DNA from: Sumerlaeia bacterium
Lineage (GTDB): Bacteria; Sumerlaeota; Sumerlaeia; SLMS01; JAHLLQ01
Length of the DNA: 64,000 nucleotides
Reading direction: 5' to 3'
Assembly: GCA_040219255.1 (NCBI GenBank)
Contig: JAVJSW010000049.1
Location: forward strand, 58,067-122,066
Position numbers and translations under genes: made by a program. Shown here piece after piece: positions 897 through 61,592 of this stretch (positions are counted from its first letter, which is position 1; each line of letters opens with the position of its first letter). The notes beneath the pieces were generated by a model. The model saw only the letters and a list, made by a program, of their open reading frames with translations. It was not told the DNA's origin and searched no databases.

Positions 897-2768
897 ATGG
901 GAAATCCCCATCTCCCGCTTGGCCGCCTCCCGCTTGGCCTCTGTCTGCTCGCCGGGCTGGCTCTCGCGCCCGGCCTGCGCGCAGCCGAGCCACCGGCCGA
1001 CTACAAAGCCGCGCTGACGCTGCATCAGCAAAAAGACTACGCCGCCGCCCACGACGCCTTCGCCGCCTGGGCCAAAGCCAACCCGGCGAACCCGTGGCGC
1101 CCCAATGCCGAATTCCTCTCCATCAAATCGCTCTATGAAGCCGGCGACTACGACGCCTTTCTGGCCGCTGTCGAAGCGCTGAAGGCGAAAGCCCCCACCC
1201 ACCCTTCGCTCGACGATCTGACCTACCTGTCGGGCCGGGCGCTGGAGGAGAGCGGCCGCTGGCGCGAGGCCAAGTTCCTCTACCGCGATTTCGCCAGGGC
1301 CTATCCCGAATCGCCCTACAACGCCGAAATCGCCAAGCGCGAACCCTACACGAAGTTCCATACCTTCCTTCGCGTTTATGAGATTGAGAAGGATTGGGAG
1401 CGAGCCCGGATCAATTTCCAGGTCTATGCCATCGACCGGTCGAACCCGCCCCACCTGCGCGAAGCGGCCCAGTTCTATGCCGTCAAAGCGCTGGAAAGCA
1501 TGAAGGACTACAAAGCCTTCGAGCGAGAAGCCAAGGCCCTCTGCGCGGAAAACCCCGCCCATCCGTCCTGCGACGACCTCGCGCTGATGCTGGCCTACAT
1601 CAAGACCAAGGACTTTGATTACGAGGGCGCGGTGCTGGCCTATCAGGACTTCCTGGCCCAGTACCCCGATTCGCCGCTCGCCGCCAAGGCCCGCGAGCAC
1701 ATCGCCGAATTCGGCATCCTCACCGGCCCCGGCCTGCCTCCAACGGACCTGACCGAAGCCGAGCGCCGCGAGCGGATTTCGCTCAACGTCTGGTGGCTCA
1801 ACGATCTACGGGCCCAGGGCAAGGACCTGCCCTTCGCCGCCACGGCCCGGTCCTTCGCCAAGAAGCAACCCGGCCACGCCGACGCGCCCGAGCTGGCGCT
1901 GAAGGCCCTGCGCCGCGCCAAGGTGAAGCATAAGGACGACTTCGCCGACACCTTCGCCCTGGAACTCGCCGAATCCCCCCTCGCCAGCCGCGTCACTTGG
2001 CTCGGCGGCCGCACCGGTCAGACCGAAGCCCAAGCCAAAGAGACCTTCAACGCCGTCCGCGACCGCATGAAACGCACCGGCAACGCCCAGGAAGCGATGC
2101 TCGAATACAGCGACTTCCTGACTGCATACGGCAACAACTGGCGCGCCCCCATGGCCAAACTCGAAATGGCCAGCCTCTGCGTCGGCATGGGCGACCGCCA
2201 CGGGTTCAACCTCCTCAAAGCCGAACTCGAAGGCCACCTCGAACCCGAGCAAGCGGACCGCCTGCGGGTTTATGAAAGCTGCTTCCTCTTGGAAAGCGGG
2301 CAGAAGGGCAAGGCGAAGCGGATTCTCGAGGAAGTTTCCGCGCGCAATCCTAGCACAGCAATTTACGAGCATTTTGTCAGAGAAGTGTTTGAGGATTGGG
2401 TTGCTACAAAGAATGTCGGCGCGATTCGCCGATTCGCGCCCCATATGGACAAACTCTACACATCTAGTGAACTCGAGTGGGGTTTCGCTTCTCGGTATCT
2501 CGGCGTCGCTGCATACCAGTCTGGTAAATACGCAGAGGCAGCCCGTCAGTTGCAGGTGGTTTGGAACGAGGCGACGCTGAAAGGTGAGGAGGCAGATCGT
2601 CAAAAACTCTTCACCGCGTGGTGGCTTGCTGGCGTTTACCGAATGATCGGCGACGACGAAATGGTGAATTATTGGGTACGAAGGGTCGAGCGCGAAGTGC
2701 CGCCTTCACGCGTTCGGACGGATATGTTCAAAATGTTTGCCTATGAGGTTTCGCTCGATGAAATTTAG
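897..2768 (+). CDS. TPR-repeat protein with N-terminal signal peptide (MGNPHLPLGRLPLGLCLLAGLALAPGLRAAEP).
   Basis: ORF 699..2768; internal Met at residue 67 precedes a clear signal peptide. Repeated ~34-aa helical units with the W/Y/A/F-x-x-A-x-x-Y pattern. The last ~450 nt have markedly lower GC than the rest of the gene. Confidence 0.7.
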   Translation: MGNPHLPLGRLPLGLCLLAGLALAPGLRAAEPPADYKAALTLHQQKDYAAAHDAFAAWAKANPANPWRPNAEFLSIKSLYEAGDYDAFLAAVEALKAKAPTHPSLDDLTYLSGRALEESGRWREAKFLYRDFARAYPESPYNAEIAKREPYTKFHTFLRVYEIEKDWERARINFQVYAIDRSNPPHLREAAQFYAVKALESMKDYKAFEREAKALCAENPAHPSCDDLALMLAYIKTKDFDYEGAVLAYQDFLAQYPDSPLAAKAREHIAEFGILTGPGLPPTDLTEAERRERISLNVWWLNDLRAQGKDLPFAATARSFAKKQPGHADAPELALKALRRAKVKHKDDFADTFALELAESPLASRVTWLGGRTGQTEAQAKETFNAVRDRMKRTGNAQEAMLEYSDFLTAYGNNWRAPMAKLEMASLCVGMGDRHGFNLLKAELEGHLEPEQADRLRVYESCFLLESGQKGKAKRILEEVSARNPSTAIYEHFVREVFEDWVATKNVGAIRRFAPHMDKLYTSSELEWGFASRYLGVAAYQSGKYAEAARQLQVVWNEATLKGEEADRQKLFTAWWLAGVYRMIGDDEMVNYWVRRVEREVPPSRVRTDMFKMFAYEVSLDEI

Positions 2769-3864
2769 TGTTGTATTTCGTTATCTTTGCTTGGGTGTTG
2801 CCATTGCTGGGGTGGCCTCAGTCTTCGCCGGAGAAGGTAATCCGAGTATTCCTACGAGTTGCTTGCCCCAGGAAAGCATTTGCTATGGGGATCCGAACGA
2901 CCCGCAACCATGTCCGGCTAACTCGGGAAACCCAAATCCAGACGTATGTACGGGAACGTCAAATGGACTGACCGTCGACTGGCATTGGTACCAAATCTGT
3001 GTTGAACGTGAACTCTGTGTAGGTGACAAGATTGATGAATCCGTCATCCGTATCAACGGGTTGCAGCATCCAACAGTACTCCCGGTTCAGTACAGCCCGT
3101 CAGTGGTTACCGAGGCAGGAGTTATTGCTGTGAATGTCAGCTTTGCCTACCCTTGCTGTAGAAACTACGACTTCGGGTGTTGGGGTGACCCGGTCGGAGT
3201 GACCCGGACGGTGTTTATCAAGGTTCATGAATACGTCAGGAATGGTGATGTGGTTCCGCGTGGAGGTATGCGACGAATTGCGGCCGTCATGGGCATAGAT
3301 TCGAGTAATAATTTGCATAATCACGACTATCGCCATGCGCCCGCACCAAGAAAAGATGTTACTGGCTTCGATTATGGTAAGACCGCATCTACTATTGCTA
3401 ACGACCTATGCTTTGTAGACGTTACCGCGAACTATTATACCAATGCTTTTTGTCAATACACATTGACGGTAAGTAAGGGTGCTGTTGCTGGGAGTTACGC
3501 GATCGCGAGCGTTGGGGCGGAGTTGTCCTCGCCAAATGGAAGTAAAAACAAGGGGTACGGAGTAACTACGGAAAACGAAGCACTAAGCGTAACTTTTATT
3601 TTTGGGACACTTTTGGAAGTGTCTTGTAGTCCCGTAGGGAATACTCACACCGCGGATGGAAACTTCACATTGGCTATATCGGACGAAGAGCAGAAAAACC
3701 CGCACGAACCCAAGAAGACCCACGATATCACAGACCCAACCGACTTGACGGTCGAAGCACAGGCTAGGATTAATCTTAGCTTTTCCATGGCAGACGCCTA
3801 TATATTGGGTTCAATTAGCGAGAGCGCACCAGACTCAGGCAAAGTTTTTGATTGGGGGAACTAA
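2758..3864 (+). CDS. Hypothetical secreted cysteine-rich protein (13 Cys, 368 aa); low-GC island gene A.
   Basis: ORF 2737..3864. Met at residue 8 begins MKFSVVFRYLCLGVAIAGVASVFA (signal peptide). AT-richer codon usage than the flanks. No motif I recognise. Confidence 0.6.
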   Translation: MKFSVVFRYLCLGVAIAGVASVFAGEGNPSIPTSCLPQESICYGDPNDPQPCPANSGNPNPDVCTGTSNGLTVDWHWYQICVERELCVGDKIDESVIRINGLQHPTVLPVQYSPSVVTEAGVIAVNVSFAYPCCRNYDFGCWGDPVGVTRTVFIKVHEYVRNGDVVPRGGMRRIAAVMGIDSSNNLHNHDYRHAPAPRKDVTGFDYGKTASTIANDLCFVDVTANYYTNAFCQYTLTVSKGAVAGSYAIASVGAELSSPNGSKNKGYGVTTENEALSVTFIFGTLLEVSCSPVGNTHTADGNFTLAISDEEQKNPHEPKKTHDITDPTDLTVEAQARINLSFSMADAYILGSISESAPDSGKVFDWGN

Positions 3865-3867
3865 GTG

Positions 3868-4842
3868 ATGGGGAGCCTGTCTAGAATAATTCCTAGTCCA
3901 TGGATGGCAGCATTTCTTGCATTGGGATTGGTTTTTTGCTACAATTCCGCGGCTATTGCGTCCGATTCAACGGTTGTAGATTGGAAAATGGATGCCGCAT
4001 GTGAGAACGACTTTTCTTCTTTCTTGGCAGATGAGGATGTTAGAAACGCCCTCAATGAACGGTATTCGCAAATAGAAGAATTACTTCTTGAGTTTGAAGG
4101 CGACAAATTGCCGATCAAGGTGTGGTTTCAGAAGTCGGTCTGTATGGATTTGGAAAAGCTCAACATCAACTTTTCAAGAGTTGATCGGGAACAATTTCCC
4201 AGTTTTTCGGCCTTCATTAGATGGAGCAATGATGCATTCGTCGGCGAAGCTACGGAGAGTATCAATACCGTCATGAGAGAAGGTATTACCCTGCAGAGCG
4301 CAGAAACTGACATCGAGGACTTCACGGTGTTTGCCGCAGCAGTCAGGGACTTGCTCCGTAACCATTGGTGCAAGGGTGAGAATTTGTACATTTGGAGAGA
4401 GAGGTTGTCTCCGCAAGTTTCAGCTGCTGCGGACGAATATGGGAATGTTGTGTCAGGCGGTTTGGCTCATGAAGAGTACGACGCACTTGTCGGCCAATTG
4501 GTAGAGTTTGACCTAGGGATTCAACTAAAGGCCCAGGTACAATCACTAGTGAAAGTATATTCTGATGATAGGCTAAATATATTTACAACGGGGCTGTACT
4601 ACCGCCGTTCCTATGACGAAGATCCACTAGAAGTCTATAATTCGTACGTGAAAGGCTGTTTGGACTGTCGCATTTTTCATGCGGAAATCTCGAAGCACCT
4701 GAATGGGTTTTATCTTTACCCGGTTTTCGATGCATTCACATTTGGAAAAACTCGGAAAGTTCACAGAGTTTCTTCGGCGTCGCTGAATGACCCTGCGTCT
4801 GATAGTCTCATCCCCTTTGATGTCGATGAGTACTGCGATTAA
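3868..4842 (+). CDS. Hypothetical secreted protein (325 aa); low-GC island gene B.
   Basis: ORF 3865..4842 (GTG then ATG). Signal-like N-terminus MMGSLSRIIPSPWMAAFLALGLVFCYNSAAIA. Begins 1-4 nt after the gene A stop (coupled). Low GC. Confidence 0.6.
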   Translation: MGSLSRIIPSPWMAAFLALGLVFCYNSAAIASDSTVVDWKMDAACENDFSSFLADEDVRNALNERYSQIEELLLEFEGDKLPIKVWFQKSVCMDLEKLNINFSRVDREQFPSFSAFIRWSNDAFVGEATESINTVMREGITLQSAETDIEDFTVFAAAVRDLLRNHWCKGENLYIWRERLSPQVSAAADEYGNVVSGGLAHEEYDALVGQLVEFDLGIQLKAQVQSLVKVYSDDRLNIFTTGLYYRRSYDEDPLEVYNSYVKGCLDCRIFHAEISKHLNGFYLYPVFDAFTFGKTRKVHRVSSASLNDPASDSLIPFDVDEYCD

Positions 4843-5016
4843 GCAATTCTACTCGGCTGGCTCTTATGGAGGACAAATTGAACTGCCGCGAGGCATAGGA
4901 TTTTCCCCATTGCCCCCGCCCGCCCCTTCCCCTTCCCTGTCAGGCGCAATCCCTGACGGAGCGTTTGCCTCGTGCGATTTCCCAGTGAGTTGTGGGCCTG
5001 CGGCGAGCAGGCTCGC

Positions 5017-5370
5017 ATGGCGTCCAGCCTGGCCGAGTTGATGGCCGCCGAGCCGTTGATCCTGACGGATCGGCTGACGAATTCGATCTATTTCAATCCC
5101 CCGGCGGAAGCCCTCTTCGGCGCCACCGGCGAGGAGTTGGTGAACCGCGTGACGTTCTCGCTGCTGGGGATGGACGGCGGCGCGCAGCCGCCCCCGCCCG
5201 CCATGGTGGCGGCGCTGCTGGGCGAGGCGGGGCCGTGGAAGGCGCTGCTGCACCTGCCCGCCGAGGGGGGGGCGCGCACCGTCATCTGCGAAGCGTCGGC
5301 GGTCAAGGACCGCACCGGCGAGCTGATTTGCGGCGTGATCCGTCTGAGCCCAAAGGAGGTCGCGCGATGA
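5017..5370 (+). CDS. Stand-alone PAS (sensory box) domain protein, ~117 aa.
   Basis: ORF 4972..5370; Met at residue 16. The stretch PLILTDRLTNSIYFNPPAEALFGATGEELVNR matches the PAS core consensus (I-x-D-x-x-G-x-I-x-x-N-x-A-x-x-x-x-G-Y). Its end overlaps the purN start by 4 nt. Confidence 0.5.
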   Translation: MASSLAELMAAEPLILTDRLTNSIYFNPPAEALFGATGEELVNRVTFSLLGMDGGAQPPPPAMVAALLGEAGPWKALLHLPAEGGARTVICEASAVKDRTGELICGVIRLSPKEVAR

Positions 5371-6002
5371 AAATCGGCGTTCTGATTTCCGGCCGCGGAT
5401 CGAACCTTGAGGCGCTCCTCAAGGCCAAAAAGCGCGGGCAGCTCGAGGCGGCGGAGTTCGTCCTGGTCGTCAGCAACAACCCGGACGCGCCGGGTCTGGA
5501 ACGCGCCCGCGAGCGCGGCATCCCAACGCTGGTGCTGGATCATCGCAGCCACCGCACGCCCGATGACCGCCTGGATCGCGCAGGCCATGAAGCCGCCGTG
5601 GTCGATGCGCTGCGCGAGGCGGGCGCCGACGCCGTCGTCCTGGCCGGCTGGATGCGCATCGTGGGCGAGCGCCTGCTTGCCGCCTTTCCCGGCGCCATCA
5701 TCAACATTCACCCCTCCCTTCTGCCCAGCTTCCCCGGCCTCCACGCCCAGCGCCAGGCCCTCGACCACGGCGTCAAGGTCACCGGCTGCACTGTGCATTT
5801 CGTGGACGACGGCATGGATACGGGCCCGATCATCGTGCAGCGCGCGGTGCCGATTCTGGAGACGGACGACGAGGCGAGCCTCTCGACCCGTCTCCTGCGC
5901 GAGGAGCACGGCGCCATCGTCGAGGCGGTGGACCTGTGGTCTCAGGGGCGGCTGGCCATCGAAGGCCGCCGCGTGCGCGTGCGATCATTAAGAACCGGCT
6001 GA
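5367..6002 (+). CDS. purN: Phosphoribosylglycinamide formyltransferase (PurN).
   Basis: MKIGVLISGRGSNLEALL..., the catalytic HPSLLPSFPG, and the DxG (MDTGPII) folate-binding motifs. AAGGAGG Shine-Dalgarno 7 nt upstream of the ATG. Confidence 0.9.
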   Translation: MKIGVLISGRGSNLEALLKAKKRGQLEAAEFVLVVSNNPDAPGLERARERGIPTLVLDHRSHRTPDDRLDRAGHEAAVVDALREAGADAVVLAGWMRIVGERLLAAFPGAIINIHPSLLPSFPGLHAQRQALDHGVKVTGCTVHFVDDGMDTGPIIVQRAVPILETDDEASLSTRLLREEHGAIVEAVDLWSQGRLAIEGRRVRVRSLRTG

Positions 6003-7220: not shown

Positions 7221-9470
7221 TTAGTAGCGGGTTTCCGACGGCGGGGGCAGGACCGGCTGCGAAGGACGGGCGCCACCGCCTCCATCGGTCGGCGAAGGCC
7301 GGCGGGTTTCTTCCTCGCGGTCCCTTTCCGAACCGGGTTCGGCGGGGCGGTCCTGACCGCCACGGGTGCGGACGGGAGCCTCGCCGCCGCCGCCGCGATT
7401 GCCACCGCCACCGCCAATGGAGGCGCTGCCGCCGGTCGCCTGCGGCCGGAAGTTCGAATCGCGGCCCGCGCCGGCGGCCGGCTGGCGCACTTCGCGGGTC
7501 ACGCCCAACTGCTCGAGTTCGCCCGCCACCCCGGCGCCTTCCGCGCCAGACATCAAGTCCGACGGATCGAAATCGAAGTCCCCAGCCTCGATGTCCTCCA
7601 GGCTGATGTCTTCATCCGCGGCGGGCGCATAGCTCTCCGTGTTCTCCGCATAGTTCGTCACCATGCGGCCCCGTCGGCCGTCTTCGTTGATCTGGCGGGG
7701 GATGGTGTCTTCCACGATGGTCGGGGTGATGAAGATTTGGAGTTGAGTTCTATTGGTCGTGGTGGAGCGCGAACCGAAAACCGGCCCCACAACGGGCAGG
7801 CTCGAAAGGAATGGCAAGCCGCCGTTTGTCTCCGCGTCCGAGTTCGTGATCAAACCACCGATCACGCGCGTCTGTCCCGAGGGAATCGTCAAGATCGTTT
7901 CCAGCGTTTGCGTATCGCTTCGGATCAGAGTGAATTCCTCGCCGTCAGCCAACCGAGTGACCGGCTGGGCATCGTCGTTGTCGATCTGCAAGTCCAGCTC
8001 GATCAGATAGCTGTTGGAAATCGAGGGGGTCACTTCGAAAGTCAAACCGTCGCGCACCGTCTGCTGGGTTTGTGTGCGGAAATTGTTCACGTTGTTTGTA
8101 TCGGTGATCGTCGAAAGGAACGGTTCCTCCGAACCGACGCGAATTCGCGAGGCTTCCTGATTCTTCACCAGCAGGCGCGGCTGGAGAAGAGTCTTCGTGT
8201 TGGTGTCTTCAAAGGAGGCTTGATACTCGATGAAAGCTTCGTCGCCCAAGTAAGCGCCAGCAAGCTGGTTGCCGCTCAGCGCCAGGTAAGGAAAGGTCGA
8301 CGCCAATTCCCGGAATCCCATGCCGTCATCGTCATCATCGATGGTTCCGACGGGATTTCGGGGACCAACCCGCGTGCCAGCCGCGTCCGGTGGATTGATA
8401 AACGGATCGCCCGAGATCGCAGCCTGCTGAAGCCCGATGTTGAAGCCACGATTGAACGTCGTCTGCAAGATCTCGGCTTGGATCAGCACCTGCTTCACCG
8501 GACGGTCGAAACCAGCCAGGATCTGCTCCACGCGCTCGTGGACCTCGGGCACGTCTTCCAGGATGAAGACACCCTGCTTGTCATTGATTTCAAACAGCAG
8601 GTCCGGCGTGCGGATGGTCTCGATGATCTCCTGCAACTGCTCCAGGTCCTCGCCGTCGATGCCGATGTTGTTCACATCGTAGATGACGATTTCCGGACCC
8701 ACGTCCAGGATGTCGATCAGCAGCTCCATCTTCTTGATGTTGCTCAGCAGGTCCGTCACAATGATCTGGTGGGTTTTCGGGTCCACCTCGATGGTACCCG
8801 GGTCGCTCTTGTAGGTTTCGATTTTCTGGGCGATGTCCTCCACGTCGGCGTAGCGCAGGTAGAAGACGCGGGTAAAGAGCTGGACGTCGATTTCACGGAT
8901 CAGGCGCTCGATGCGCTCGATCACGTCGGGCAGATCGCTGACGATGATTTTGTTCGTGCGGTTGTCGCTCGTGATGCTGCCGATGTCGCGGGTCAGGGCG
9001 GGTCGGATCGCCTGCTCCAACTCCGCCGCGTTCACATGATCGGGGCGGAAAATCTTCGTGATGACTTTGTTCGGCAGGATATTCTGGCGGTACCATTGCT
9101 CATCGGCGATGCCGAATGTGCCGTCGTCCTGCTTGAACCACACCAGATTGTTCGGCGTGGCAAGACTCGTCAGTGCTTCCTCCAGGGTGGCGTCCGGTTT
9201 GAAAATCGAGACCCGCTGGCCAACCGCGCGGCCAAAGGCCGAGATGCTGGTGTCGGCCTGATTCCCGAGGACCTGCAGCACGATTTCGATCTTGGCGTCG
9301 TTGAACACCGCCTTCACTTTGCGGTCGCCGGGGTTTTCGGCCATTTCCTGGGCCCGGGCGGTGCCCGGCAGGCCGAGGGCCGCCGCCACCAGCAACGCCC
9401 ACAGCACCGGCCACAGGGCCGCGGCGGGGCGGGAGAGGATTGAACGAAGGGGGGTGATCAACGTGGTCAT
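7221..9470 (-). CDS. Secretin (GspD/PilQ family outer-membrane channel) with multiple N-domains and a Gly/Arg-rich C-terminal tail.
   Basis: ORF 7221..9632; Met55 begins a signal peptide (MTTLITPLRSILSRPAAALWPVLWALLVAAALGLPGTARAQE). Several NolW-like N-domains (RVFYLRYADVEDIAQKI...IIVTD). Secretin C-domain signature GGLPFLSSLPVVGPVFGSRSTTTNRTQLQIFITPTIVED. The last ~70 aa are GGGGNRGGGG / RD-rich. Confidence 0.85.
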   Translation of the reverse strand: MTTLITPLRSILSRPAAALWPVLWALLVAAALGLPGTARAQEMAENPGDRKVKAVFNDAKIEIVLQVLGNQADTSISAFGRAVGQRVSIFKPDATLEEALTSLATPNNLVWFKQDDGTFGIADEQWYRQNILPNKVITKIFRPDHVNAAELEQAIRPALTRDIGSITSDNRTNKIIVSDLPDVIERIERLIREIDVQLFTRVFYLRYADVEDIAQKIETYKSDPGTIEVDPKTHQIIVTDLLSNIKKMELLIDILDVGPEIVIYDVNNIGIDGEDLEQLQEIIETIRTPDLLFEINDKQGVFILEDVPEVHERVEQILAGFDRPVKQVLIQAEILQTTFNRGFNIGLQQAAISGDPFINPPDAAGTRVGPRNPVGTIDDDDDGMGFRELASTFPYLALSGNQLAGAYLGDEAFIEYQASFEDTNTKTLLQPRLLVKNQEASRIRVGSEEPFLSTITDTNNVNNFRTQTQQTVRDGLTFEVTPSISNSYLIELDLQIDNDDAQPVTRLADGEEFTLIRSDTQTLETILTIPSGQTRVIGGLITNSDAETNGGLPFLSSLPVVGPVFGSRSTTTNRTQLQIFITPTIVEDTIPRQINEDGRRGRMVTNYAENTESYAPAADEDISLEDIEAGDFDFDPSDLMSGAEGAGVAGELEQLGVTREVRQPAAGAGRDSNFRPQATGGSASIGGGGGNRGGGGEAPVRTRGGQDRPAEPGSERDREEETRRPSPTDGGGGARPSQPVLPPPSETRY

Positions 9471-9641
9471 GAGTCTCGGGGGCTCCATGGCTCCGGGTTC
9501 GGGTCGCGTCGCGTGGTTGGTTTCAACCGGTTCGCACCTGAGGCAGGGTTTCAGGCTTTCGCCGATCATGAGGCGAGGTGTCACGCGGAAAGTTCCAGCG
9601 GCAAAGGGAGAGTGCTCAGGCGGGGTCTTCAAAACGGGGGC

Positions 9642-10574
9642 TCAATTCACGGGGAGGGGTTGGTCGAGGGTTTGGATGAGGGCGGTGATGTTTTCCAACT
9701 CTTCGATAGAATAGGCATGAACGATCAATTTTCGTTTTTCATCCAGCGCGGTGGCATCCACACTGTCGGGAGCCGAGATAGACAAAATGGCTCGAGCCAG
9801 GTCCGAAGGTTTCTCATGTTCAAGGCGGAAGACGCGGATCGGTCCTCCATGGACGCAGAATTGATGTCGTTGAAACCACATGTTCGTGGAAACATGATAT
9901 CCACGCTCCTCGCAACCTAACCACCTCCAATCATGTGGAGCGCACAAGGTGTCGAGGGCTCCTTGCAAGGTTTCCGTGGTCAGAACCAAATTCACATGGA
10001 CGTCGGCTTTTGCCAAGTGACCTATAGGACGAATGTCCGTTGCATAACGATTGGAAAGTATCTCGAGTACATCCCTCAACGGAACCTTTCGAAGGATCGT
10101 CAATTTCGATGCGATCTCCGGCGTCAACACACGTCCAGGGCCAGAACTCTCGTAGAGTGATTTCAATTCTTCCGGTGACGGTAGGTCGGCTGCCCCACTT
10201 CGCCGTCTGCTCTCAATCCACGTTCGATCGGAATAGAAGTATCCGCCATAGAAGTTCTTCTCCCAACTCCCATCGGTCTGGTCGGCGAGAAGAGACAGCA
10301 CGCTTTCGAGCGCGGGGGTCGTGAGCTGGTCCTCGGACTCGAGCGAGAAACTAACCGGCAGCGTCAACTCGACCAGTCCCGAAGGGCAGACGCTGATCCC
10401 AGATGCTTTCGATAGAATCGCCAAAGCCTCACGAACCGGCACATCACGATACACCGTCCGCGAAGTCACGGCTTCCTCTCTGATTGGCGAAGAGATCGCC
10501 CGACCCGCAGGCGCCCCGGCTAAAGCCAATGGCGCCAACGAAAGACAAAGGTAAAGTAGAGCTGGTCGGAACAT
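9642..10574 (-). CDS. Periplasmic protein built of secretin-N-terminal-like modules (STN-like + NolW-like), no secretin pore domain; putative secretin partner.
   Basis: Signal peptide MFRPALLYLCLSLAPLALAG. VPVREALAILSKASGISV (STN-like). IRVFRLEHEKPSDLARAILSI...LIVHAYSIEELENITALIQTLD (NolW-like alpha/beta module). The 3' two-thirds of the gene is noticeably lower in GC than the 5' third. Confidence 0.6.
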   Translation of the reverse strand: MFRPALLYLCLSLAPLALAGAPAGRAISSPIREEAVTSRTVYRDVPVREALAILSKASGISVCPSGLVELTLPVSFSLESEDQLTTPALESVLSLLADQTDGSWEKNFYGGYFYSDRTWIESRRRSGAADLPSPEELKSLYESSGPGRVLTPEIASKLTILRKVPLRDVLEILSNRYATDIRPIGHLAKADVHVNLVLTTETLQGALDTLCAPHDWRWLGCEERGYHVSTNMWFQRHQFCVHGGPIRVFRLEHEKPSDLARAILSISAPDSVDATALDEKRKLIVHAYSIEELENITALIQTLDQPLPVN

Positions 10575-13257: not shown

Positions 13258-13415
13258 GGCGAAAAGATATTGCTTGCGCTCGAAAGGGATCACGGGAATA
13301 GATTTTTCCTGATCAGCAAATTTACCAGATGAATTCATCAGGCCGCCTTTCTTCCAAGGGACGACCCTCATCCGAATTGCTCCCGGGGACATTGATTTCG
13401 CTCGAGAATGGCTCA

Positions 13416-14822
13416 ATGATGAAACTCTCGGTTTTTCTTTTCTCGCTCCTAATCTGTTCCGTCAGCACGAGTGGTCAGTCGCAACAGACTGCGGATTCAC
13501 AGGAATACGTTTTGTCTGTATTTGAAGCCCATTTGAGGGCGATGCTCGACTTGAGTTCTGTTCAGGGCTTCGGCACCTTTGAGACAATTCAGTATGGAAG
13601 GCCTACCGAGGTTGATCAAGGCGTTCTTGCCAGCCGGATGCGGGAGTACAAAGCGTCATTCTCTCAAGGCGTTCCTAGTTCGCAAGGCATGACGGATGAG
13701 CAGGCATACGCGCTGGCTCTTCATTCTTTTGAGAAACCGACAGAACGGATTCAAGCCCCCTTTACTTTAGCCAGGTATCACGATCAGTTCACAGTAACAT
13801 TTCGAAACTTGATCGTTCAGACTTCGAGTTACGGGGATAATGGCAATGTCACAACTCATGCTCAGCCAAAGCTCCAAGCCTTTTCGAGTCGAGGAGATTT
13901 GACTGTTCGATTTTCTGAAGGGTGGGAGGCCACGCGAGGGAAGAACACTGCGGAAATCGAAGAGACTGCCAATATCCCTTACGTCATGTTTTGGGGATTG
14001 GGCTCATTTCTCGATTCGCGTTTCCATGACATCAATACTACTGGCTTCCTGATTCATATGTCAAGACAGAATCCCTCCATCATTTCGGAAAGCCAACAAG
14101 CAATTGAAATCAGAATCGAGAATCCCGCAACTAAAGTCCCTGACATCTTTGTTTTTGATAAGAACAAGGACTTTGCTTTACTGGAGAGGCGGACATATCG
14201 AATGGGTTCGTCTGGCGAACCTTACTTGCATTCACATGATGTATACAGTGAGTATGTTTCATCGAATGGCCGATGGTGGCCCCGCTTGACCGAGCGAATT
14301 CGTTATCGCGACCCACAGCCAAATACCGACTCCGAAATTGACAGGAAAGAGCGGATCGCTTTCGACGAGATCGCCGTTGATGGTATCGTCGAGAAGGAGA
14401 AGTACGATTTCCTGATCCCTGCCAATACTCATTTTCAGGCTGGCTATGGTTTGAAAAACCAGGCCATCCTTGCGAAGTTGCCATACTTGCAGGAGTTTCC
14501 CGTTCATTTGTCAAGTATCGAAGAGAGCTTTCTTGACGCACCCGTTCCAGGTGTCAACGTCCACGACGATTTCAACTTGTCCGAGTCCGAAGCTCAGGAA
14601 GACATTCCAAGTCGTCAGCAAACAGCGATTTCGAAAAACCTGAGTCCCCCAGACGGTGAATCAAGCGATGTTCGAGAAGCTGAGCCGCGTGCAAACACAG
14701 CCACCGGGCGGACCTCTCAGTTTCCCAGGAATCTAATATATTTTAGCCTGGCCTTGACTGGTATCCTTGCGGCTGTCGCTGGGCTGGTAGCCCTGACCCG
14801 GCTAATCGCTACGAAACGGTAA
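13416..14822 (+). CDS. Hypothetical protein with N-terminal signal peptide and C-terminal transmembrane anchor (469 aa); low-GC island 2.
   Basis: ORF 13329..14822; Met30 begins MMKLSVFLFSLLICSVSTSG. C-terminus NLIYFSLALTGILAAVAGLVALTRLIATKR is a TM helix with a basic stop-transfer. GC is much lower than the flanks. No recognisable catalytic motif. Confidence 0.6.
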   Translation: MMKLSVFLFSLLICSVSTSGQSQQTADSQEYVLSVFEAHLRAMLDLSSVQGFGTFETIQYGRPTEVDQGVLASRMREYKASFSQGVPSSQGMTDEQAYALALHSFEKPTERIQAPFTLARYHDQFTVTFRNLIVQTSSYGDNGNVTTHAQPKLQAFSSRGDLTVRFSEGWEATRGKNTAEIEETANIPYVMFWGLGSFLDSRFHDINTTGFLIHMSRQNPSIISESQQAIEIRIENPATKVPDIFVFDKNKDFALLERRTYRMGSSGEPYLHSHDVYSEYVSSNGRWWPRLTERIRYRDPQPNTDSEIDRKERIAFDEIAVDGIVEKEKYDFLIPANTHFQAGYGLKNQAILAKLPYLQEFPVHLSSIEESFLDAPVPGVNVHDDFNLSESEAQEDIPSRQQTAISKNLSPPDGESSDVREAEPRANTATGRTSQFPRNLIYFSLALTGILAAVAGLVALTRLIATKR

Positions 14823-33356: not shown

Positions 33357-33416
33357 GGAAACACAGACGGTTTCGTTTGTCCCCTCATGTGGAGCTTCGG
33401 GAGAAAGAAAGACAAA

Positions 33417-33488
33417 ATACACTTATCAGACAAGATTCACCTGTCAGACAAAACGCACCTATCAGACAAGACAGACCTGTCAGACAAG
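33417..33488. repeat. Four tandem 18-bp direct repeats (iteron-like): ATACACTTATCAGACAAG / ATTCACCTGTCAGACAAA / ACGCACCTATCAGACAAG / ACAGACCTGTCAGACAAG. Consensus A-N-N-C/G-A-C-(C/T)-T-R-TCAGACAAR.
   Basis: Read directly from the sequence. Unit length is exactly 18 with no spacers. The array lies ~60-130 nt 5' of the small ORF/terminase operon on the minus strand and ~280 nt 5' of the Fe-S carrier gene on the plus strand. Confidence 0.8.
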
Positions 33489-56288: not shown

Positions 56289-57620
56289 GTGTCTGTGTCC
56301 GGACCGGAGGTTCAAAGCCCCCCCGCCATCGTCAAGTCGGCGGATACAACGCCGGGCACGGCGGCGTCTTCTCGCTCGGCGATTCAGATGAATGGGATCG
56401 GCAAGCGTTATCGGCTGGGCGATTCGCGGCGGATGAACGACTCGCTGGGCGACGAAATGGCGGGCTGGTTCTCGCGCTGGCGCCGGCGGGGCCAAGACAA
56501 GGATGGCGACAGTCTGTTTTGGGCGCTGCGGGGCATCGATCTGGAAGTGATGCGCGGAGACACGGTGGGCATTATCGGGCGCAACGGCGCGGGAAAGTCC
56601 ACCCTGCTCAAGATCCTCAGCCGCATCACGACCCCCACGACGGGAACGATGCGATACATGGGGCGTCTGGCCAGTCTGCTGGAAGTGGGCACCGGTTTCC
56701 ACCGCGAACTGACGGGCCGAGAGAACATCTTCCTGAACGGTTCCATCCTGGGCATGCGCCGCCGTGAAATCGAACAACAGTTCGACGCCATCGTGGAATT
56801 CGCCGGTACGGAAAAGTTCCTCGACACCCCGGTCAAATTCTACTCCAGCGGCATGTACGTGCGCCTGGCCTTCGCCGTGGCGGCCCATCTGCGCACCGAC
56901 ATCCTGGTGGTGGACGAAGTGCTGGCTGTGGGGGACGCGCAGTTTCAGAAGAAATGCCTCGGCAAAATGCAGGACGTGGCGGGCGACGGGCGAACGGTGC
57001 TGTTTGTGAGCCACAACATGGCGACCGTTCAAAGGCTTTGCGCGTCGTGCATTTACCTGCGCGATGGTCAATTGGTCACATCCGGAGAGACGGTGCAGGT
57101 GATTCAGGAGTACCTGAAGAGCGGCATCAACCTGGGAGCGTGTGCGGATCGCGGTCCTGATCCTTCGTTCCCGATGCGGCTGCGGACGGCTGCGGTGGTG
57201 GACGAGGAGGGAGAGATTCTGCACCAGGTCGAGCGCTCGCAGAAGGCTTTCCTCTCCGTGCGTTACGACATCAACGAACCGGTGAAGGATGTCCACGTGG
57301 TCTGTCACATCACGGATATGCAAAACAACATTATCGTAAGCACGGGCGATTGCGACATGGGTCGGGACGTTTCCGCGGTCCGGTCTCCCGGAGCGTACGA
57401 AGGACGATTTCAAATTCCTTCCCACACGCTGAACGATGGGAGCTACTCTGTCACGGTTGCACTGGGGATCCCCTACCGGACGGTTTACGACCGGGAGGCC
57501 TCCTGCGCAGATTTTCAAGTCGTGGATTTGCGGCGCGAAGAAGGCCCGACGTACGCCCAGCGGCGTCCGGGCTTCTTGGCCATCGATATTCCGTGGGAAG
57601 TGGTAAGGGTCGAAGAATGA
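56289..57620 (+). CDS. wzt: ABC transporter ATP-binding protein Wzt/KpsT-like with C-terminal carbohydrate-binding-type extension.
   Basis: Walker A GRNGAGKST. LSGG-like YSSGMYVRLAFA. Walker B ILVVDEVLAVGD. ~170-aa beta-rich C-terminal domain beyond the NBD (Wzt_C-like). GTG start 3 nt after the wzm stop; alternative ATG at 56388. Confidence 0.8.
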   Translation: MSVSGPEVQSPPAIVKSADTTPGTAASSRSAIQMNGIGKRYRLGDSRRMNDSLGDEMAGWFSRWRRRGQDKDGDSLFWALRGIDLEVMRGDTVGIIGRNGAGKSTLLKILSRITTPTTGTMRYMGRLASLLEVGTGFHRELTGRENIFLNGSILGMRRREIEQQFDAIVEFAGTEKFLDTPVKFYSSGMYVRLAFAVAAHLRTDILVVDEVLAVGDAQFQKKCLGKMQDVAGDGRTVLFVSHNMATVQRLCASCIYLRDGQLVTSGETVQVIQEYLKSGINLGACADRGPDPSFPMRLRTAAVVDEEGEILHQVERSQKAFLSVRYDINEPVKDVHVVCHITDMQNNIIVSTGDCDMGRDVSAVRSPGAYEGRFQIPSHTLNDGSYSVTVALGIPYRTVYDREASCADFQVVDLRREEGPTYAQRRPGFLAIDIPWEVVRVEE

Positions 57621-58525
57621 GAGACGGCGAAATGAATCCCGCACCCAAAGCGGAGCCCCGGATCGATCAACTCCCGGTCATAGACGTGACCAGCGAGTTC
57701 CCCAAGCCCAAGAAGGAGAAGCCGAAGAGCTTCTGGGGCCGCGTTTCGAAGAGCGTGCGCTACCACCTGTTCGGCCCGGCGCCGGCGGATTCGAACCCCT
57801 TCACGCCCTACATGGCGCGGCTGAATCTGTTGGATCGGACGGCGGACTTTCCGGTGATTTTTCCGAAGCACCGTTGGTGCTTCGTGCGCTTCTCCGACGA
57901 AGGGGATTTCCTGACGGCGATGATGAAGGACATTCGTCCGGCGGACGTTGTCTGGGATGTCGGTTCTTTCCTCGGCATGGTGACGGTCTTCGCCGGAAAG
58001 TTCGCGAGCGAGGGCCGCGTTATCGCCATCGAACCGGACCCGGCACTGGCGGCGCGGACGCGCAAGAATCTGGTGCTCAACGGCGTGAAGAACGCTGAGG
58101 TGATCGAGGTGGGACTGGGCGAGGAGGAAGGCACGGTTCGGCTGAACACGAGCGGCGAGTCGGGCGCCGCGCCGGCGATCATGGACAAGGGCCTGGAGAC
58201 CTACATCGAAATCGCCATCAAGACCGTGGATCAATTGGTCGCCGAAGAGCCGGCCCGCTTCCCGAACATTCTGAAAATCGATGTCGAAGGGTTTGAAACG
58301 CATGTCCTGCGGGGAATGAAGGCGACGCTGGAGGACGAGCGTTTGCGGAGCATCTACCTGGAACTGCATCCCGTCTATCTGTTCAAGAAGGGGGAAGCGA
58401 TCGAGGAACCGCTGGTCTTGCTGCGCGAGGCGGGATTCGAGATGACGTATTGCCTGGTCAAGCGCCAGGAGATGGTCTTCGCGTTTCAGCGAAAGTCGAA
58501 GAAGGCGGCGGCGTCCGGTTCCTGA
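57617..58525 (+). CDS. FkbM-family methyltransferase (second copy).
   Basis: ORF 57350..58525; Met90. The ATG overlaps the wzt stop (ATGA). VWDVGSFLGMVTVFA...KIDVEGFETHVLRG. Confidence 0.75.
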   Translation: MRDGEMNPAPKAEPRIDQLPVIDVTSEFPKPKKEKPKSFWGRVSKSVRYHLFGPAPADSNPFTPYMARLNLLDRTADFPVIFPKHRWCFVRFSDEGDFLTAMMKDIRPADVVWDVGSFLGMVTVFAGKFASEGRVIAIEPDPALAARTRKNLVLNGVKNAEVIEVGLGEEEGTVRLNTSGESGAAPAIMDKGLETYIEIAIKTVDQLVAEEPARFPNILKIDVEGFETHVLRGMKATLEDERLRSIYLELHPVYLFKKGEAIEEPLVLLREAGFEMTYCLVKRQEMVFAFQRKSKKAAASGS

Positions 58526-58682
58526 CGGATCGGCACCGCGCTCCCACCGCCTCGCCAGGGGCCAAAACGTCTTGCATCCCGCGCGTCAATCGACGGTTTA
58601 TTCCCCCTCCCGCTCAAGAGGGCGGAAGAATCCTGGGAGCGAGCACGCCCTCCCAACCGTTTTGAAGAGGCCCATCGGACTC

Positions 58683-59681
58683 GTGAGCAAGAATGCAGTC
58701 ATATTGGGAGGCGGCGCCATCGCCATCAATTTCCATCTGCCGCGGGTGAAAACGATGCTCGGGGCGGAGAGGGTTGTCGTGGTGGAGGTGAGCGCTCCGC
58801 GGAGGGAAGAACTCGCCCGCGAGTTCGGAAGCGACCGGTCGGTGGAGATCGTGGAGTCGCTTCCGGCGACCGGCCAGTTCGATTTCGCCGTGATCGCCAC
58901 ACCACCCAAGTTCCACTTTGAATACTTCGAGCAACTCAAGGGCCGGGCGCGGGACATCCTGATCGAGAAACCCATGACGTTGAACGCGGAGGAAGCTCGC
59001 CGCGTGGCAGAGATCTGTGCCGGCGGTGGTCCCCGGGTTTACGTGGCGTTGATCCGGAGGACGCTGGGCGGGTTCGCCCTGATCCGGGAGATGATCCGGG
59101 CCAATCAGTTCGGCGCGCTGAAGAAGGTCACTCTGACGGAGGGTGGCATTTTCGGTTGGATGGCCGTTTCCATGGGGTCCTTTTCGCGGACCCTGAACGG
59201 CGGCGGCGTCCTGATGGACACGGGGCCCCATACCATCGACCTGCTGTTTCAGGTGTTCGACACCGTCGAATTCCAAGCCAGTTGGATGGATGCGGACCTG
59301 AGCGAAGGCGGCGAAACGATCGAGGCCAATTGCACGCTGGACCTCTTGGCGGACGGCGCGGTGCCGGTGCGCCTGAGCCTGAGCCGCAATCGCAACTTCT
59401 CAAACCTGGCGGTCTTCGAATTCGAAGCGGCGGTCTGCAAAGTCGGCGTCCGCGACGACGAGGTCACGGTGGACATGGCCTCGGGGGTGCCGCTGAAGGC
59501 GATGCCGACCGACGAATTCGCCGAGATGGGCAAAGACTTCAAAGCTCTCTTCGACAGGTATTACGCTCGGTTCTTGCTCCGCCAGGACAACACCGGCGTG
59601 GCTCCGGAAGACTCGGAGAAGATCGCTCGGATCATCGACGCCGCTTACCAGAACGCCCAACCGATCAAGGGAGGATTCTGA
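58683..59681 (+). CDS. Gfo/Idh/MocA-family NAD(P)-dependent oxidoreductase.
   Basis: GTG start (VSKNAVILGGGAIAINFHLP...). The rest follows the Gfo/Idh/MocA layout: FAVIATPPKFHFEYFE..L..G..ILIEKPMTLNAEEA. Confidence 0.75.
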   Translation: MSKNAVILGGGAIAINFHLPRVKTMLGAERVVVVEVSAPRREELAREFGSDRSVEIVESLPATGQFDFAVIATPPKFHFEYFEQLKGRARDILIEKPMTLNAEEARRVAEICAGGGPRVYVALIRRTLGGFALIREMIRANQFGALKKVTLTEGGIFGWMAVSMGSFSRTLNGGGVLMDTGPHTIDLLFQVFDTVEFQASWMDADLSEGGETIEANCTLDLLADGAVPVRLSLSRNRNFSNLAVFEFEAAVCKVGVRDDEVTVDMASGVPLKAMPTDEFAEMGKDFKALFDRYYARFLLRQDNTGVAPEDSEKIARIIDAAYQNAQPIKGGF

Positions 59682-60826
59682 TGCGCGTCGCGATCTTTGG
59701 CGGAACGGGGTTCATGGGTTACGATTTCGTGCGTCTGCTTCTTGACGAAGGGACCCACGAACCGGTGGTGTACTGCACGAGCCCAAAAAACCTGACGAAT
59801 TTGCGGCGCCATCCGGTCGCGGTCCGTTTCGTTCCTCCGCACCTGATGGCCAATGAAAACCTGGACGAAGACATCGACCTGATCGTCAACTTCGCCCATC
59901 CTTTCCAACAACGCGACCAGATGACGCCGAATCAGCAGACCGATCTGTTCGTCCGGTTCCTGGAAAAAGCGCGCGCCAGGAACCCGAAACTCCGGATGGT
60001 GCATATCAGCACCTTGTCGGTGTACGAGCCTTTCTCCGAGGACAAAGAATATGCCGAGACCGATCCGCTCGACCCTCCCGGATCGGATCTCTATGCGACG
60101 ACGAAACTTTACGCCGAGAAGGCGATCCGCGGAATCGCGGGTGCGGAGGAGTGGCAGGTGGTCTTGCGGCCGACGATCGTTTACGGGTCATTTTGCCGCC
60201 CGTGGACCGATGGGTTGCTGAAGGCTTTCGCCGAGGGCGACGTGGGCTATTGCGATCTGGGCGGCATGATTCAGCCGATCACGGGCCGCGACATCTCGCG
60301 CTTCATCCGTCGTGTGATGGACGATTTCAAGCCCGGCGTCTACAACATGGCGGGCCAGGAGAAGGTCTCCTGGAAGGAATTCTTCACGCTGTTCCAGGAA
60401 GTGGTCGGCGAGGGCCGGTTGGTGCAGGTCGAACCGCCTCCGCCGGGCGCGGTGCCGGTGCAGCTCGACGGGCTGGCGTTCTATCGCTTCCACGCCAAGG
60501 AATTGCAGAGAGTCATCGTGGCGAATCGGTCTTTTAACGCCATCGCGACGCGTATGGCGAAACCGGTGCCTCGGACGCTGGTGATGAAGGTGCGCCGTTC
60601 GCTGGGCCTGGACAAGCCTCCGGCTCCAAGACGCGCGGGCGCGGCGGCCGCCGGAACGGACGTGCAATTGCAGTTCACGAAGCCCTTCTTCGGGGAAGAC
60701 CGGCTGGTGTCGCGGGCGCATTTCGAGGATACCTTTCCCGATTTCGCGACCACGCCGCTCGGCCAAATGAAAGAGACTTTACGCGAGTATTACGAATATC
60801 GGTTCACCGATAAGATTTATACGTAA
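59681..60826 (+). CDS. NAD-dependent epimerase/dehydratase (extended SDR).
   Basis: The ATG shares 1 nt with the upstream TGA. MRVAIFGGTGFMGYDFVRLL (TGxxGxxG). YATTK (YxxxK catalytic pair). Confidence 0.75.
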   Translation: MRVAIFGGTGFMGYDFVRLLLDEGTHEPVVYCTSPKNLTNLRRHPVAVRFVPPHLMANENLDEDIDLIVNFAHPFQQRDQMTPNQQTDLFVRFLEKARARNPKLRMVHISTLSVYEPFSEDKEYAETDPLDPPGSDLYATTKLYAEKAIRGIAGAEEWQVVLRPTIVYGSFCRPWTDGLLKAFAEGDVGYCDLGGMIQPITGRDISRFIRRVMDDFKPGVYNMAGQEKVSWKEFFTLFQEVVGEGRLVQVEPPPPGAVPVQLDGLAFYRFHAKELQRVIVANRSFNAIATRMAKPVPRTLVMKVRRSLGLDKPPAPRRAGAAAAGTDVQLQFTKPFFGEDRLVSRAHFEDTFPDFATTPLGQMKETLREYYEYRFTDKIYT

Positions 60827-60847
60827 AGGCTCGAATGGAGATTCACG

Positions 60848-61585
60848 GTGGAAAAGACAGAAATCTACGACAGCCTGAACAAGACCTACTTCTCGGAGGA
60901 TTGCGACGAGCGCCGGACGCTGGACGCCCTGCCACCGCTGCTTCGCAACGCCAAGCGATTTGTGGACATCGGCGCGAGTCTTGGCCAATATACCCGGTAT
61001 TGCAACAAGCACTTGAATGGCGCGAAGATGTGGGCGATCGAAGCCGATCCGGTCCGCTATGAAGAATTGGCGCGCAATTGTGCACAATGGCAGGGCGAAA
61101 GCTCGAACACCATCGATGTCATTCATGGCGCGGTCTCGGATCAAGTCGGGGAGATCGTCTTCTATACGAGCAACAGCACCGTCAGCGGCGGTCTCTTTCA
61201 GCATGCAGTCAAGAGTGGGGATGTGGAATGGCAGGAGGTGCGAGTTCCTGCCTGCACGCTCGATTCCCTCTTTTCAAATGAGCCTCCGGATTTTATCAAG
61301 ATCGATGTCGAAGGCGTGGAACTGCGTGTCCTCAAAGGCAGCGTGGAAATTTTGAAGAAGAAGAAGACGTTTCTCCTGGTCGAGGTTCATAGTTGGGCCG
61401 ATCCCCAAGGACAAAAGAATCCCCGGGAAGTGTTGGACTTCATGAAGTCTCATGGTTACTATGCCCTGCCCTTCCACGGCAAGTACCTCTTTATGCCGAT
61501 GTCCGCGGAGTACCTGAGGCGGCGCTGGCGCTCGCTGTTCAACAAAGCCAAGCAGCGCCTCTTGCCCCGCCGGAAAGCCAGTTGA
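60848..61585 (+). CDS. FkbM-family methyltransferase (third copy), in lower-GC segment.
   Basis: FVDIGASLGQYT...FIKIDVEGVELRVLKG...FLLVEVH. Confidence 0.75.
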   Translation: MEKTEIYDSLNKTYFSEDCDERRTLDALPPLLRNAKRFVDIGASLGQYTRYCNKHLNGAKMWAIEADPVRYEELARNCAQWQGESSNTIDVIHGAVSDQVGEIVFYTSNSTVSGGLFQHAVKSGDVEWQEVRVPACTLDSLFSNEPPDFIKIDVEGVELRVLKGSVEILKKKKTFLLVEVHSWADPQGQKNPREVLDFMKSHGYYALPFHGKYLFMPMSAEYLRRRWRSLFNKAKQRLLPRRKAS

Positions 61586-61592
61586 GGACGGC

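Follow-up and report, generated by a model that had tools for sequence, protein, structure and literature searches.

An AT-rich stretch of ~2.6 kb (about 2270-4910 in the window, i.e. the whole 64,000-nt stretch of DNA that was analysed) from an uncultured Sumerlaeia bacterium comprises the tail of a gene encoding a TPR protein and two downstream genes, here termed A and B. The best explanation, in which we place about even confidence, is that this islet is a segment of foreign composition that was delivered by recombination into a native operon and that encodes envelope proteins. Overall, its appearance is that of an ordinary islet of acquired genes, rather than of a demonstrable toxin cassette. 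The features of the islet and of its surroundings are as follows.

897..2768, forward strand: exported TPR protein, 623 aa (gene call, Pfam YfiO/TPR matches)
2269..2322, no strand: left compositional breakpoint, in frame, within a TPR-like helical unit (residues ~457-490)
2322..2768, forward strand: low-GC 3' part of the TPR gene (residues ~476-623), GC3 0.55, CAI 0.407 (z = -5.9)
2744..2749, forward strand: Shine-Dalgarno-like TGAGGT, the GAGG core of which ends 9 nt 5' of the gene A start codon
2758..3864, forward strand: gene A, 368 aa, acidic product (pI 4.8), an ORF with a signal peptide ending ...SVFA before GEGN
3854..3859, forward strand: Shine-Dalgarno-like GGGGGA, 8 nt 5' of the gene B ATG
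3868..4842, forward strand: gene B, 324 aa, acidic product (pI 4.5), an ORF with a signal peptide ending ...AIA before SDS
4843..4912, no strand: low-GC non-coding tail and right compositional breakpoint, change point about 4912
4893..4945, forward strand: C-rich, G-poor tract at the right edge (C 0.53-0.60, G 0.10-0.15 in 40-nt windows)
7221-9569, strand opposite to the islet: secretin, with two Secretin_N proteins (neighbour scan)
21.3-23.1 kb: T2SSE-type ATPase (neighbour scan)

Windows of 300 nt have a GC fraction of 0.65-0.70 at 1650-2250, 0.50-0.55 at 2250-3300 and 0.43-0.50 at 3300-4950, and of 0.69-0.72 from 4950. The initial annotation of this DNA, which was made from the sequence without database searches, had proposed an abrupt GC drop near 2300, inside the TPR gene, and the change points bear this out. 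The GC3 of the TPR gene goes from 0.82 to 0.55 at nt 2322 (maximum-likelihood change point, log-likelihood gain of 21), and with all bases taken together the left change point falls at nt 2269 and the right one at nt 4912, the latter with GC going from 0.46 to 0.69. A return to host composition is thus seen as proposed, though the right edge is nearer to 4912 than to the 4860 originally given; likewise the description of GC as well under one-half applies mainly to gene B (0.43-0.46), but not to the first ~550 nt of the islet (about 0.51-0.55). GC3 is 0.49 for gene A and 0.48 for gene B, compared with about 0.80-0.88 for host genes. With 22 host genes as the reference for the codon adaptation index (0.70 +/- 0.05), the 5' part of the TPR gene scores 0.755, and its 3' part (0.407), A (0.340) and B (0.332) lie at z = -5.9 to -7.4. 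The correlation of RSCU with the host is 0.93 for the 5' part of the TPR gene and 0.18 for the 3' part, and codon usage in the islet is uncorrelated or negatively correlated with that of the host (r = -0.17 and -0.10). The windowed GC/GC3 and codon-adaptation analyses, which had been put forward as a check on the earlier proposal, reveal a low-GC, low-CAI islet between host-like flanks. GC1 and the GARP amino-acid fraction are likewise shifted in the islet, so that a relaxation of codon bias would not account for all of the difference.

The TPR protein has a signal-peptide-like N terminus (...GLRA, followed by AEPP), after which residues 32-144 form YbgF/CpoB-like TPRs. BamD/YfiO is a lipobox-bearing, five-TPR protein of about 250 aa. 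The likeness of the TPR protein to BamD/YfiO and CpoB/YbgF is in its N-terminal TPR block (residues ~30-150); by contrast with these proteins, it falls under both curated cut-offs (e.g. 84.1 bits against TIGR02795, the cut-off of which is 90.1), is without a lipobox, is 623 rather than about 250 aa in length, and its gene has no tol-pal or bam neighbours. The NCBI name 'BamD' is not supported, given the TIGR03302 score (46.6 versus 81.4 bits), the missing lipobox and the length. At the left junction the reading frame is uninterrupted and a TPR-like unit straddles the breakpoint; an unbroken frame and unbroken TPR-like repeats are to be expected for recombination between related repeat genes. 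The C-terminal 148-172 aa have sub-threshold TPR matches only; those in the low-GC 3' part are to TPR_2, TPR_16 (residues 533-553) and TPR_6, and the low-GC C-terminal ~150 residues carry on the TPR-like helical repeats. That the last ~150 aa of the protein are encoded by foreign-looking DNA, as originally proposed, is supported by GC3, CAI and the in-frame edge. A weak HrpB1/HrpK-like match is also present near the left junction.

The TPR protein and the products of A and B all have hydrophobic, Sec-type signal-peptide N termini and, by hydropathy windows, no further membrane segment, with the cleavage sites being placed by inspection. Of the 13 Cys in the gene A protein, which is probably β-rich, 12 belong to the mature part; the gene B protein, with six Cys in its mature part, is probably helical. 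The earlier descriptions of gene A as encoding a 13-Cys protein, of both products as signal-peptide proteins and of both as having no recognisable domain all stand, the first by Cys count and the second by hydropathy and inspection. With respect to the third, A and B have no match in Pfam, NCBIfam, PADLOC, PHROGs or the PDB, and gave self matches only among about 15 billion proteins, in searches that covered 5.8 billion clustered proteins and, exhaustively with HMMER, 1.84 billion representatives. Single-sequence AlphaFold models of A and B have a pLDDT of 31 and are unusable. Neither the TPR protein nor A or B has a homologue in the protein databases, and no orthologous locus is present in any collection searched; no relative or donor came up in GTDB genomes, JGI metagenomes, IMG/VR, plasmids or phages, and the collections searched likewise gave no orthologous 'empty' site, such that the case for acquisition is made from composition.

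The arrangement of the three genes is compact. The TPR stop codon (TAG, 2766-2768) lies beyond the gene A start codon (ATG, 2758), giving an 11-nt overlap, and the gene A stop codon (TAA, 3862-3864) is followed directly by GTG 3865 and ATG 3868, i.e. A and B are spaced by 0-3 nt; both junctions are as had been noted initially. Alternative starts for gene B are the GTG at 3865 and an ATG at 3904, the latter corresponding to NCBI's 312-aa call. A and B are translationally coupled. There is no promoter-like site between the TPR gene, A and B, and the three genes would probably be transcribed together from the native promoter that precedes the TPR gene. Intrinsic terminators do not exceed chance expectation, and the C-rich tract at 4893..4945 may be a putative Rho-utilisation-like site ending the operon.

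Most likely, recombination brought in the segment from an unsampled, lower-GC donor, with one crossover inside the TPR-repeat gene that preserved its reading frame and another in the intergenic spacer ahead of the PAS and purN genes. Such an event would have supplied the last ~150 residues of the TPR protein together with the Sec-exported, cysteine-containing A and B proteins. Most likely these would constitute a periplasmic/envelope module, in which the co-acquired C-terminal repeats of the TPR scaffold would bind or chaperone A and/or B. The earlier suggestion of a horizontally acquired effector/partner pair is retained in part, in that the genes are compositionally foreign, coupled, exported and of no known family, but not with respect to an effector/partner role. 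Compositionally atypical genomic islets with ORFan genes were reportedly described by Daubin and Ochman in 2004. That orphan genes are often AT-rich and lie in atypical clusters is well documented (PMC2718499, PMC3514957; reviewed in PMC12315717). The islet is similar to ORFan islets (Cortez et al. 2009, PMC2718499; Yu & Stoltzfus 2012, PMC3514957; PMC12315717) in being AT-rich relative to the genome and codon-atypical, and in being a small, sharp-edged gene cluster without homologues. By contrast with typical ORFans, which are short, its ORFs are long (324-368 aa) and its products are all exported; it also differs from ORFan islets in having no integrative-element genes and in having one edge in frame inside a resident gene. 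No integrase or transposase is present among the genes scanned, about 25 kb around the islet, there is no tRNA in the 64 kb, and flanking repeats of the islet are none above chance.

That the islet is an artefact, either of chimeric metagenome assembly or because the ORFs are not real genes, is very improbable. The organism has been found in one sample only, and the two available assemblies may come from the same reads; however, the second assembly (Logan contig SRR26147846_12217) matches the window without a single difference over 13,864 nt, both junctions included, which argues that the islet is not an assembly artefact. Further, 148 codons stay open beyond the left junction, with the sequence still repeat-like, the stop-free runs of A and B (375 and 325 codons) are much longer than in shuffles (maximum of 252 in 2000), Shine-Dalgarno motifs and stop/start coupling exist, and there are four similar patches, with host DNA on each side of each. 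These patches (at least four within 71 kb, islet included) all encode proteins that have signal-peptide-like N termini and lack an assigned family, and they bear on a second, rather unlikely, explanation, i.e. that the genes are native, fast-evolving and lineage-restricted envelope genes, the low GC of which reflects AT-biased mutation and no horizontal transfer, biased gene conversion or codon selection, which would maintain high GC in core genes, being absent, e.g. in an accessory segment without a recombination partner in the population. Consistent with this, one patch, encoding a 310-aa protein that is weakly similar to its host-GC neighbour, lies in the middle of the secretin operon, and genes that diverge rapidly also become AT-rich (PMC12315717; gBGC hypothesis, PMC4450053). 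The dinucleotide signatures of the three other patches are fully host-like, with strong TpA avoidance, and, once base composition is corrected for, neither the TPR tail nor gene B departs clearly from the host range, so a native or related-lineage origin is possible for part of the islet. By contrast, the signature of gene A is clearly non-host, with a delta* of 190 versus 82 +/- 27 for the host, a value not reached by any equal-length host segment, and a TpA odds ratio of 0.90 versus 0.39, i.e. the TpA depletion is nearly gone. The codon usage of the islet also argues against native genes, as do its edges, which are sharp (within about 50 nt), with one inside a gene, whereas gradual decay is not obviously so bounded.

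The initial annotation drew an analogy with polymorphic toxins or effectors and their partners. In such a cassette the C-terminal module of the TPR protein would be swappable, with A and/or B as partner or immunity proteins, or A would be a Sec-exported toxin and B its periplasmic immunity protein; this is now considered improbable. An abrupt GC drop over the CT/immunity region is characteristic of CDI (PMC4725963), and, as with CdiA-CT/CdiI and Rhs-CT/RhsI (PMC4725963, PMC8636562), GC in the islet drops from the 3' part of a gene for a large exported protein onwards, with tightly linked genes downstream; A and B are also orphans, as immunity genes frequently are. The abrupt drop is, however, the sole feature shared with CDI loci and is not specific to them. 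Unlike the CdiA and Rhs systems, the islet lacks a trafficking domain, a junction motif, a toxin fold and a small immunity gene, and its replaced module, which matches no toxin domain, is more TPR-like repeat. The N-terminal part of the TPR protein likewise has no trafficking domain or repeat class (in Pfam and NCBIfam it matches only TPR, YfiO and YbgF-like families), and the protein has no VENN, Rhs DPxGL (PxxxxDPxGL), YD or PAAR motif. At 368 and 324 aa, respectively, A and B are large; they are exported, and neither matches a known immunity family. CdiB/TpsB, T6SS and T7SS are all missing from the neighbourhood, as are orphan CT/immunity arrays; the scan of about 25 kb around the islet gave no T5SS, T6SS or T7SS genes, the secretion genes in the region being the secretin operon and the T2SSE-type ATPase only. 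With no trafficking, toxin or immunity domain, junction motif or delivery system, the analogy is not sustained. The neighbouring genes otherwise encode a beta-helix protein, PAS, purN, a GT4 glycosyltransferase, FG-GAP/ASPIC, ABC-F and bPH proteins, and a second group-1 glycosyltransferase. A role for A and B as substrates or accessory components of the secretin-based system next to them, with the TPR protein as a pilotin or docking factor, is likewise improbable. Exported proteins adjoin the secretin operon, TPR lipoproteins are secretin pilotins in type IV pilus systems, and the HrpB1/HrpK-like match would fit such a role; but this similarity is entirely sub-threshold, the operon is on the opposite strand, with PAS, purN and a glycosyltransferase in between, a lipobox is missing from the TPR protein, and neither A nor B shows pilin-like or pseudopilin-like features.

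In Pseudomonas aeruginosa pilin alleles with their tfp accessory genes, and in phage tail-fibre tips with their chaperones, a variable C-terminal part swaps with downstream genes. By analogy, a conserved 5' part could likewise offer homology for recombination, such that the variable 3' part and cognate downstream genes would travel together, though the TPR gene is not known to have an allelic series and the proteins bear no relation to pilins or tail fibres, the analogy being one of architecture only. It is conceivable, albeit improbable, that the TPR C-terminal repeats with A and B form a swappable 'adaptor plus cargo' cassette, representing an undescribed polymorphic envelope/effector class in Sumerlaeota; recombination within the repeat array would then swap a binding module and its cognate secreted partners together, and the nearby low-GC patches encoding exported ORFans would be further instances. 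If the preferred explanation of a recombination-delivered segment is true, the TPR gene would be a clean case of in-frame mosaicism from a phylum with very little sampling, in which a resident exported scaffold gained a C-terminal repeat block and two exported proteins, the latter constituting two new singleton families. The islet gives no direct test of a long-standing question; AT-rich orphan islets are common, and it is a data point for the debate over the origins of bacterial ORFans. The presence of a host-like signature in several patches, but not in gene A, hints that ORFans in one genome have more than one origin.

The fall in GC, GC3 (GC at third codon positions) and codon adaptation index (CAI) over the segment from about 2270 to 4910, here termed the islet, is sharp, confirming the feature as real. 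The islet comprises the low-GC 3' part of a gene for an exported TPR protein (the TPR tail) and the two genes that follow it:

897–2768, plus strand: TPR gene, 623 residues, host-like in its 5' part
2758–3864, plus strand: gene A, 368 residues
3868–4842, plus strand: gene B, 324 residues

Windowed GC drops from 0.65–0.70 to 0.50–0.55 around nucleotides 2250–2400, lies at 0.43–0.50 over 3300–4950 and is again ~0.70 beyond 4950; GC3, 0.80–0.88 in host genes, is 0.49 in A and 0.48 in B. Maximum likelihood places the GC3 change point within the TPR gene at nucleotide 2322 (0.82 to 0.55, log-likelihood gain 21); the all-base edges of the islet are at 2269 on the left and 4912 on the right. Against a reference of 22 host genes (CAI 0.70 ± 0.05), the 5' part of the TPR gene scores 0.755, the 3' part 0.407, A 0.340 and B 0.332; the corresponding RSCU correlations with the host are 0.93, 0.18, -0.17 and -0.10, and PAS and purN, just 3' of the islet, have a CAI of 0.72. 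The GARP amino-acid fraction and GC1 are also reduced in the islet. On re-reading of the sequence, the gene coordinates, 11-nt TPR/A overlap, 0–3-nt A/B spacing and 13 cysteines of the initial annotation all proved correct; its description of GC as well under one-half is true chiefly of gene B and slightly off for the rest of the islet, and its right edge at ~4860 should be moved closer to 4912. Exactly on that right edge, in the spacer that separates B from PAS, lies a C-rich (0.53–0.60), G-poor (0.10–0.15) tract (4893–4945), which may be a Rho-utilisation-like site, i.e. a putative Rho-dependent stop.

The A and B products are identical to NCBI proteins RLY93_12525 and RLY93_12530, encoded on a 240,892-bp contig of a 'Sumerlaeia bacterium' MAG, and are also present on one Logan contig (SRR26147846). 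Gene A lies in a stretch free of stops for 375 codons and gene B in one of 325, whereas the longest such stretch among 2000 shuffles of the same DNA is 252; the other frames across A/B contain no ORF of more than 87 residues, and SD-like motifs (TGAGGT for A, GGGGGA for B) are located 8–9 nt from the starts. In each of the TPR protein, A and B the only membrane segment is a hydrophobic stretch at the N-terminus, after which comes a cleavage motif of small residues; the signal peptides were called by inspection rather than by a dedicated predictor. Mature A and B are acidic, with 12 and 6 cysteines, respectively, a content that suits an oxidising compartment. A and B share a frame, but the possibility that they are a single gene interrupted by a stop was discarded, since B carries an SD motif and a signal peptide of its own.

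Searches with A and B returned self matches only, whether by word index over 5.8 billion protein clusters or, with the A+B concatenate, by exhaustive HMMER comparison with the 1.84 billion sequences that represent ~15 billion proteins. Nothing significant was found for either in Pfam, NCBIfam, PADLOC, PHROGs or PDB sequences, the best PDB matches (a spike RBD and an RxLR effector, E = 0.035–0.21) being taken as chance. Neither scans of IMG/VR with A and with B nor a blastn search of plasmids and phages with the islet yielded a match, and Rfam likewise gave none; a blastp comparison of the low-GC genes, A, B and the TPR tail included, revealed no paralogy. AlphaFold2 without an alignment yielded failed models (pLDDT 31 for A and B alike), which give hints only that A may be β-rich and B helical. 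With respect to orthologous loci, exact matches to the purN and PAS proteins are confined to this single contig from a single sample; among the matches listed in a GTDB genome scan with purN, identities were 44–56%, all in other phyla, and neither PAS nor the secretin had a match in scans of JGI metagenomes.

The TPR protein, for which homology searches gave generic TPR matches only (E ≥ 8e-6), is lineage-restricted, like A and B. Its N-terminal TPR block (residues 32–144; window 897–1350) reaches 84.1 bits with the tol-pal YbgF/CpoB model (cut-off 90.1) and the protein scores 46.6 bits against the BamD model (cut-off 81.4); the deposited product name 'BamD' is unsupported, because the N-terminal block is under both curated cut-offs, there is no lipobox and the protein has 623 residues. 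A TPR-like unit, RVYESCFLLESGQKGKAKRILEEVSARNP, straddles the left junction, and residues 533–553 of the protein, within the tail, give TPR_2, TPR_16 and TPR_6 matches, all sub-threshold; the tail is no distinct domain type. An in-frame, in-register junction inside a repeat array would be the outcome expected of recombination between related repeat genes, and this mosaic junction within a repeat protein is the neat detail of what is otherwise an AT-rich ORFan islet of an already known kind.

At least three further low-GC3 patches lie within 71 kb, all encoding proteins with signal-peptide-like N-termini. The upstream patch is given in coordinates of L001, the Logan contig that reaches beyond window position 1:

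L001 4378–6684, minus strand, 0.6–2.9 kb upstream of window position 1: coupled pair of 431 and 335 residues, GC3 0.58 and 0.61
Window 9642–10574, minus strand: 310-residue gene, GC3 0.58, in the middle of a 187-residue/310-residue/secretin operon
Window 13329–14822, plus strand: 497-residue gene, GC3 0.52

The proteins of these three patches have no family match above cut-off, the comparison with the large protein databases having covered A and B, and blastp shows none of them to be a paralogue of A or B. The upstream pair has CAI values of 0.43–0.44 and a host-like dinucleotide signature; its 335-residue protein gives weak DUF1573/Ig-like matches only. The genes flanking the 310-residue gene have GC3 of 0.85 and 0.78, and it contains a host-like patch at codons ~61–100; its product is weakly similar to the 187-residue Secretin_N protein (blastp E = 4e-4) and it therefore appears to be a mosaic accessory gene or one that was replaced. 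The 497-residue protein and the upstream 431-residue protein (L001 5389–6684) have a common architecture without sequence similarity, i.e. a signal-peptide-like N-terminus, a ~400-residue domain, an acidic/Pro-rich linker, and a C-terminal membrane helix with a basic tail, the last of which is possibly a sorting or anchor signal.

The TpA odds ratio, normalised for base composition, is 0.43–0.46 in the three further patches versus 0.39 in the host, 0.61–0.62 in the TPR tail and B, and 0.90 in gene A, which is a strong outlier (δ* 190 versus 82 ± 27, a value above that of every host segment of the same length). Gene A alone is unambiguously foreign by this signature, a test that has little power at lengths of 0.5–1 kb. 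Because the signatures differ, being host-like in three patches, intermediate in the TPR tail and B, and outlying in A, the low-GC patches do not come from one common source.

The order of genes around the islet is as follows:

Upstream: β-helix protein, four proteins without a Pfam match above cut-off, then TPR–A–B
Downstream: PAS, purN, GT4 glycosyltransferase, secretin operon, FG-GAP/ASPIC
Further on: 497-residue protein without a family match, ABC-F, two bPH proteins, second group-1 glycosyltransferase, T2SSE ATPase

No integrase, transposase or T5SS, T6SS or T7SS parts were found among the neighbouring genes, there is no tRNA in the 64 kb, repeats flanking the islet are not above chance, and sites resembling promoters or terminators are no more frequent than expected by chance. 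The junction of the TPR stop and A start (2751–2772) is identical at 17 of 22 nt to that of the PAS stop and purN start (5360–5381; TCGCnCGATGAAA..., family D5), a resemblance rejected as chance, given that a 3.6-kb sequence should contain ~100 shared 8-mers.

The interpretation that we prefer, at about even confidence, is that an islet of orphan genes was acquired by, or recombined into, the locus, where it would be expressed from the native TPR promoter, its exported products probably acting with the TPR scaffold in the envelope; the part concerning origin is firmer than that concerning function. The main rival, that the segment is native and fast-evolving and has drifted AT-rich, gains from the sister low-GC patches with a host-like signature and from the literature on ORFan origins (PMC12315717), but is considered unlikely. 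An assembly artefact is very unlikely: over 13,864 nt, both islet edges included, the Logan contig (run SRR26147846) matches the window without a difference, and it reaches 7.2 kb beyond the upstream end of the window.

With respect to function, the initial annotation had proposed a horizontally acquired secreted effector/partner pair resembling polymorphic toxins. Acquisition is plausible, as in our preferred reading of an acquired or recombined islet; the toxin analogy is unsupported. Of the six defining features listed, four are absent and one is present. The sole feature in common is the intragenic GC drop, as documented at CDI loci (PMC4725963), and a toxin/effector cassette is regarded as improbable. 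A link of the islet to the nearby secretin system, possible and unsupported, is given a similarly small chance.

Elsewhere in the window, a glycan-modification cluster (57350–63402) encodes two FkbM-type methyltransferases, a GFO/IDH/MocA oxidoreductase, an MptE-like protein and a GT2 glycosyltransferase, with intermediate GC3 (0.66–0.74) in the four genes measured, the oxidoreductase being left out. At 33410–33481, in or near a short ORF, there are about four tandem copies of an 18-nt unit (AGACAAAAyrCACCTrTC-like).
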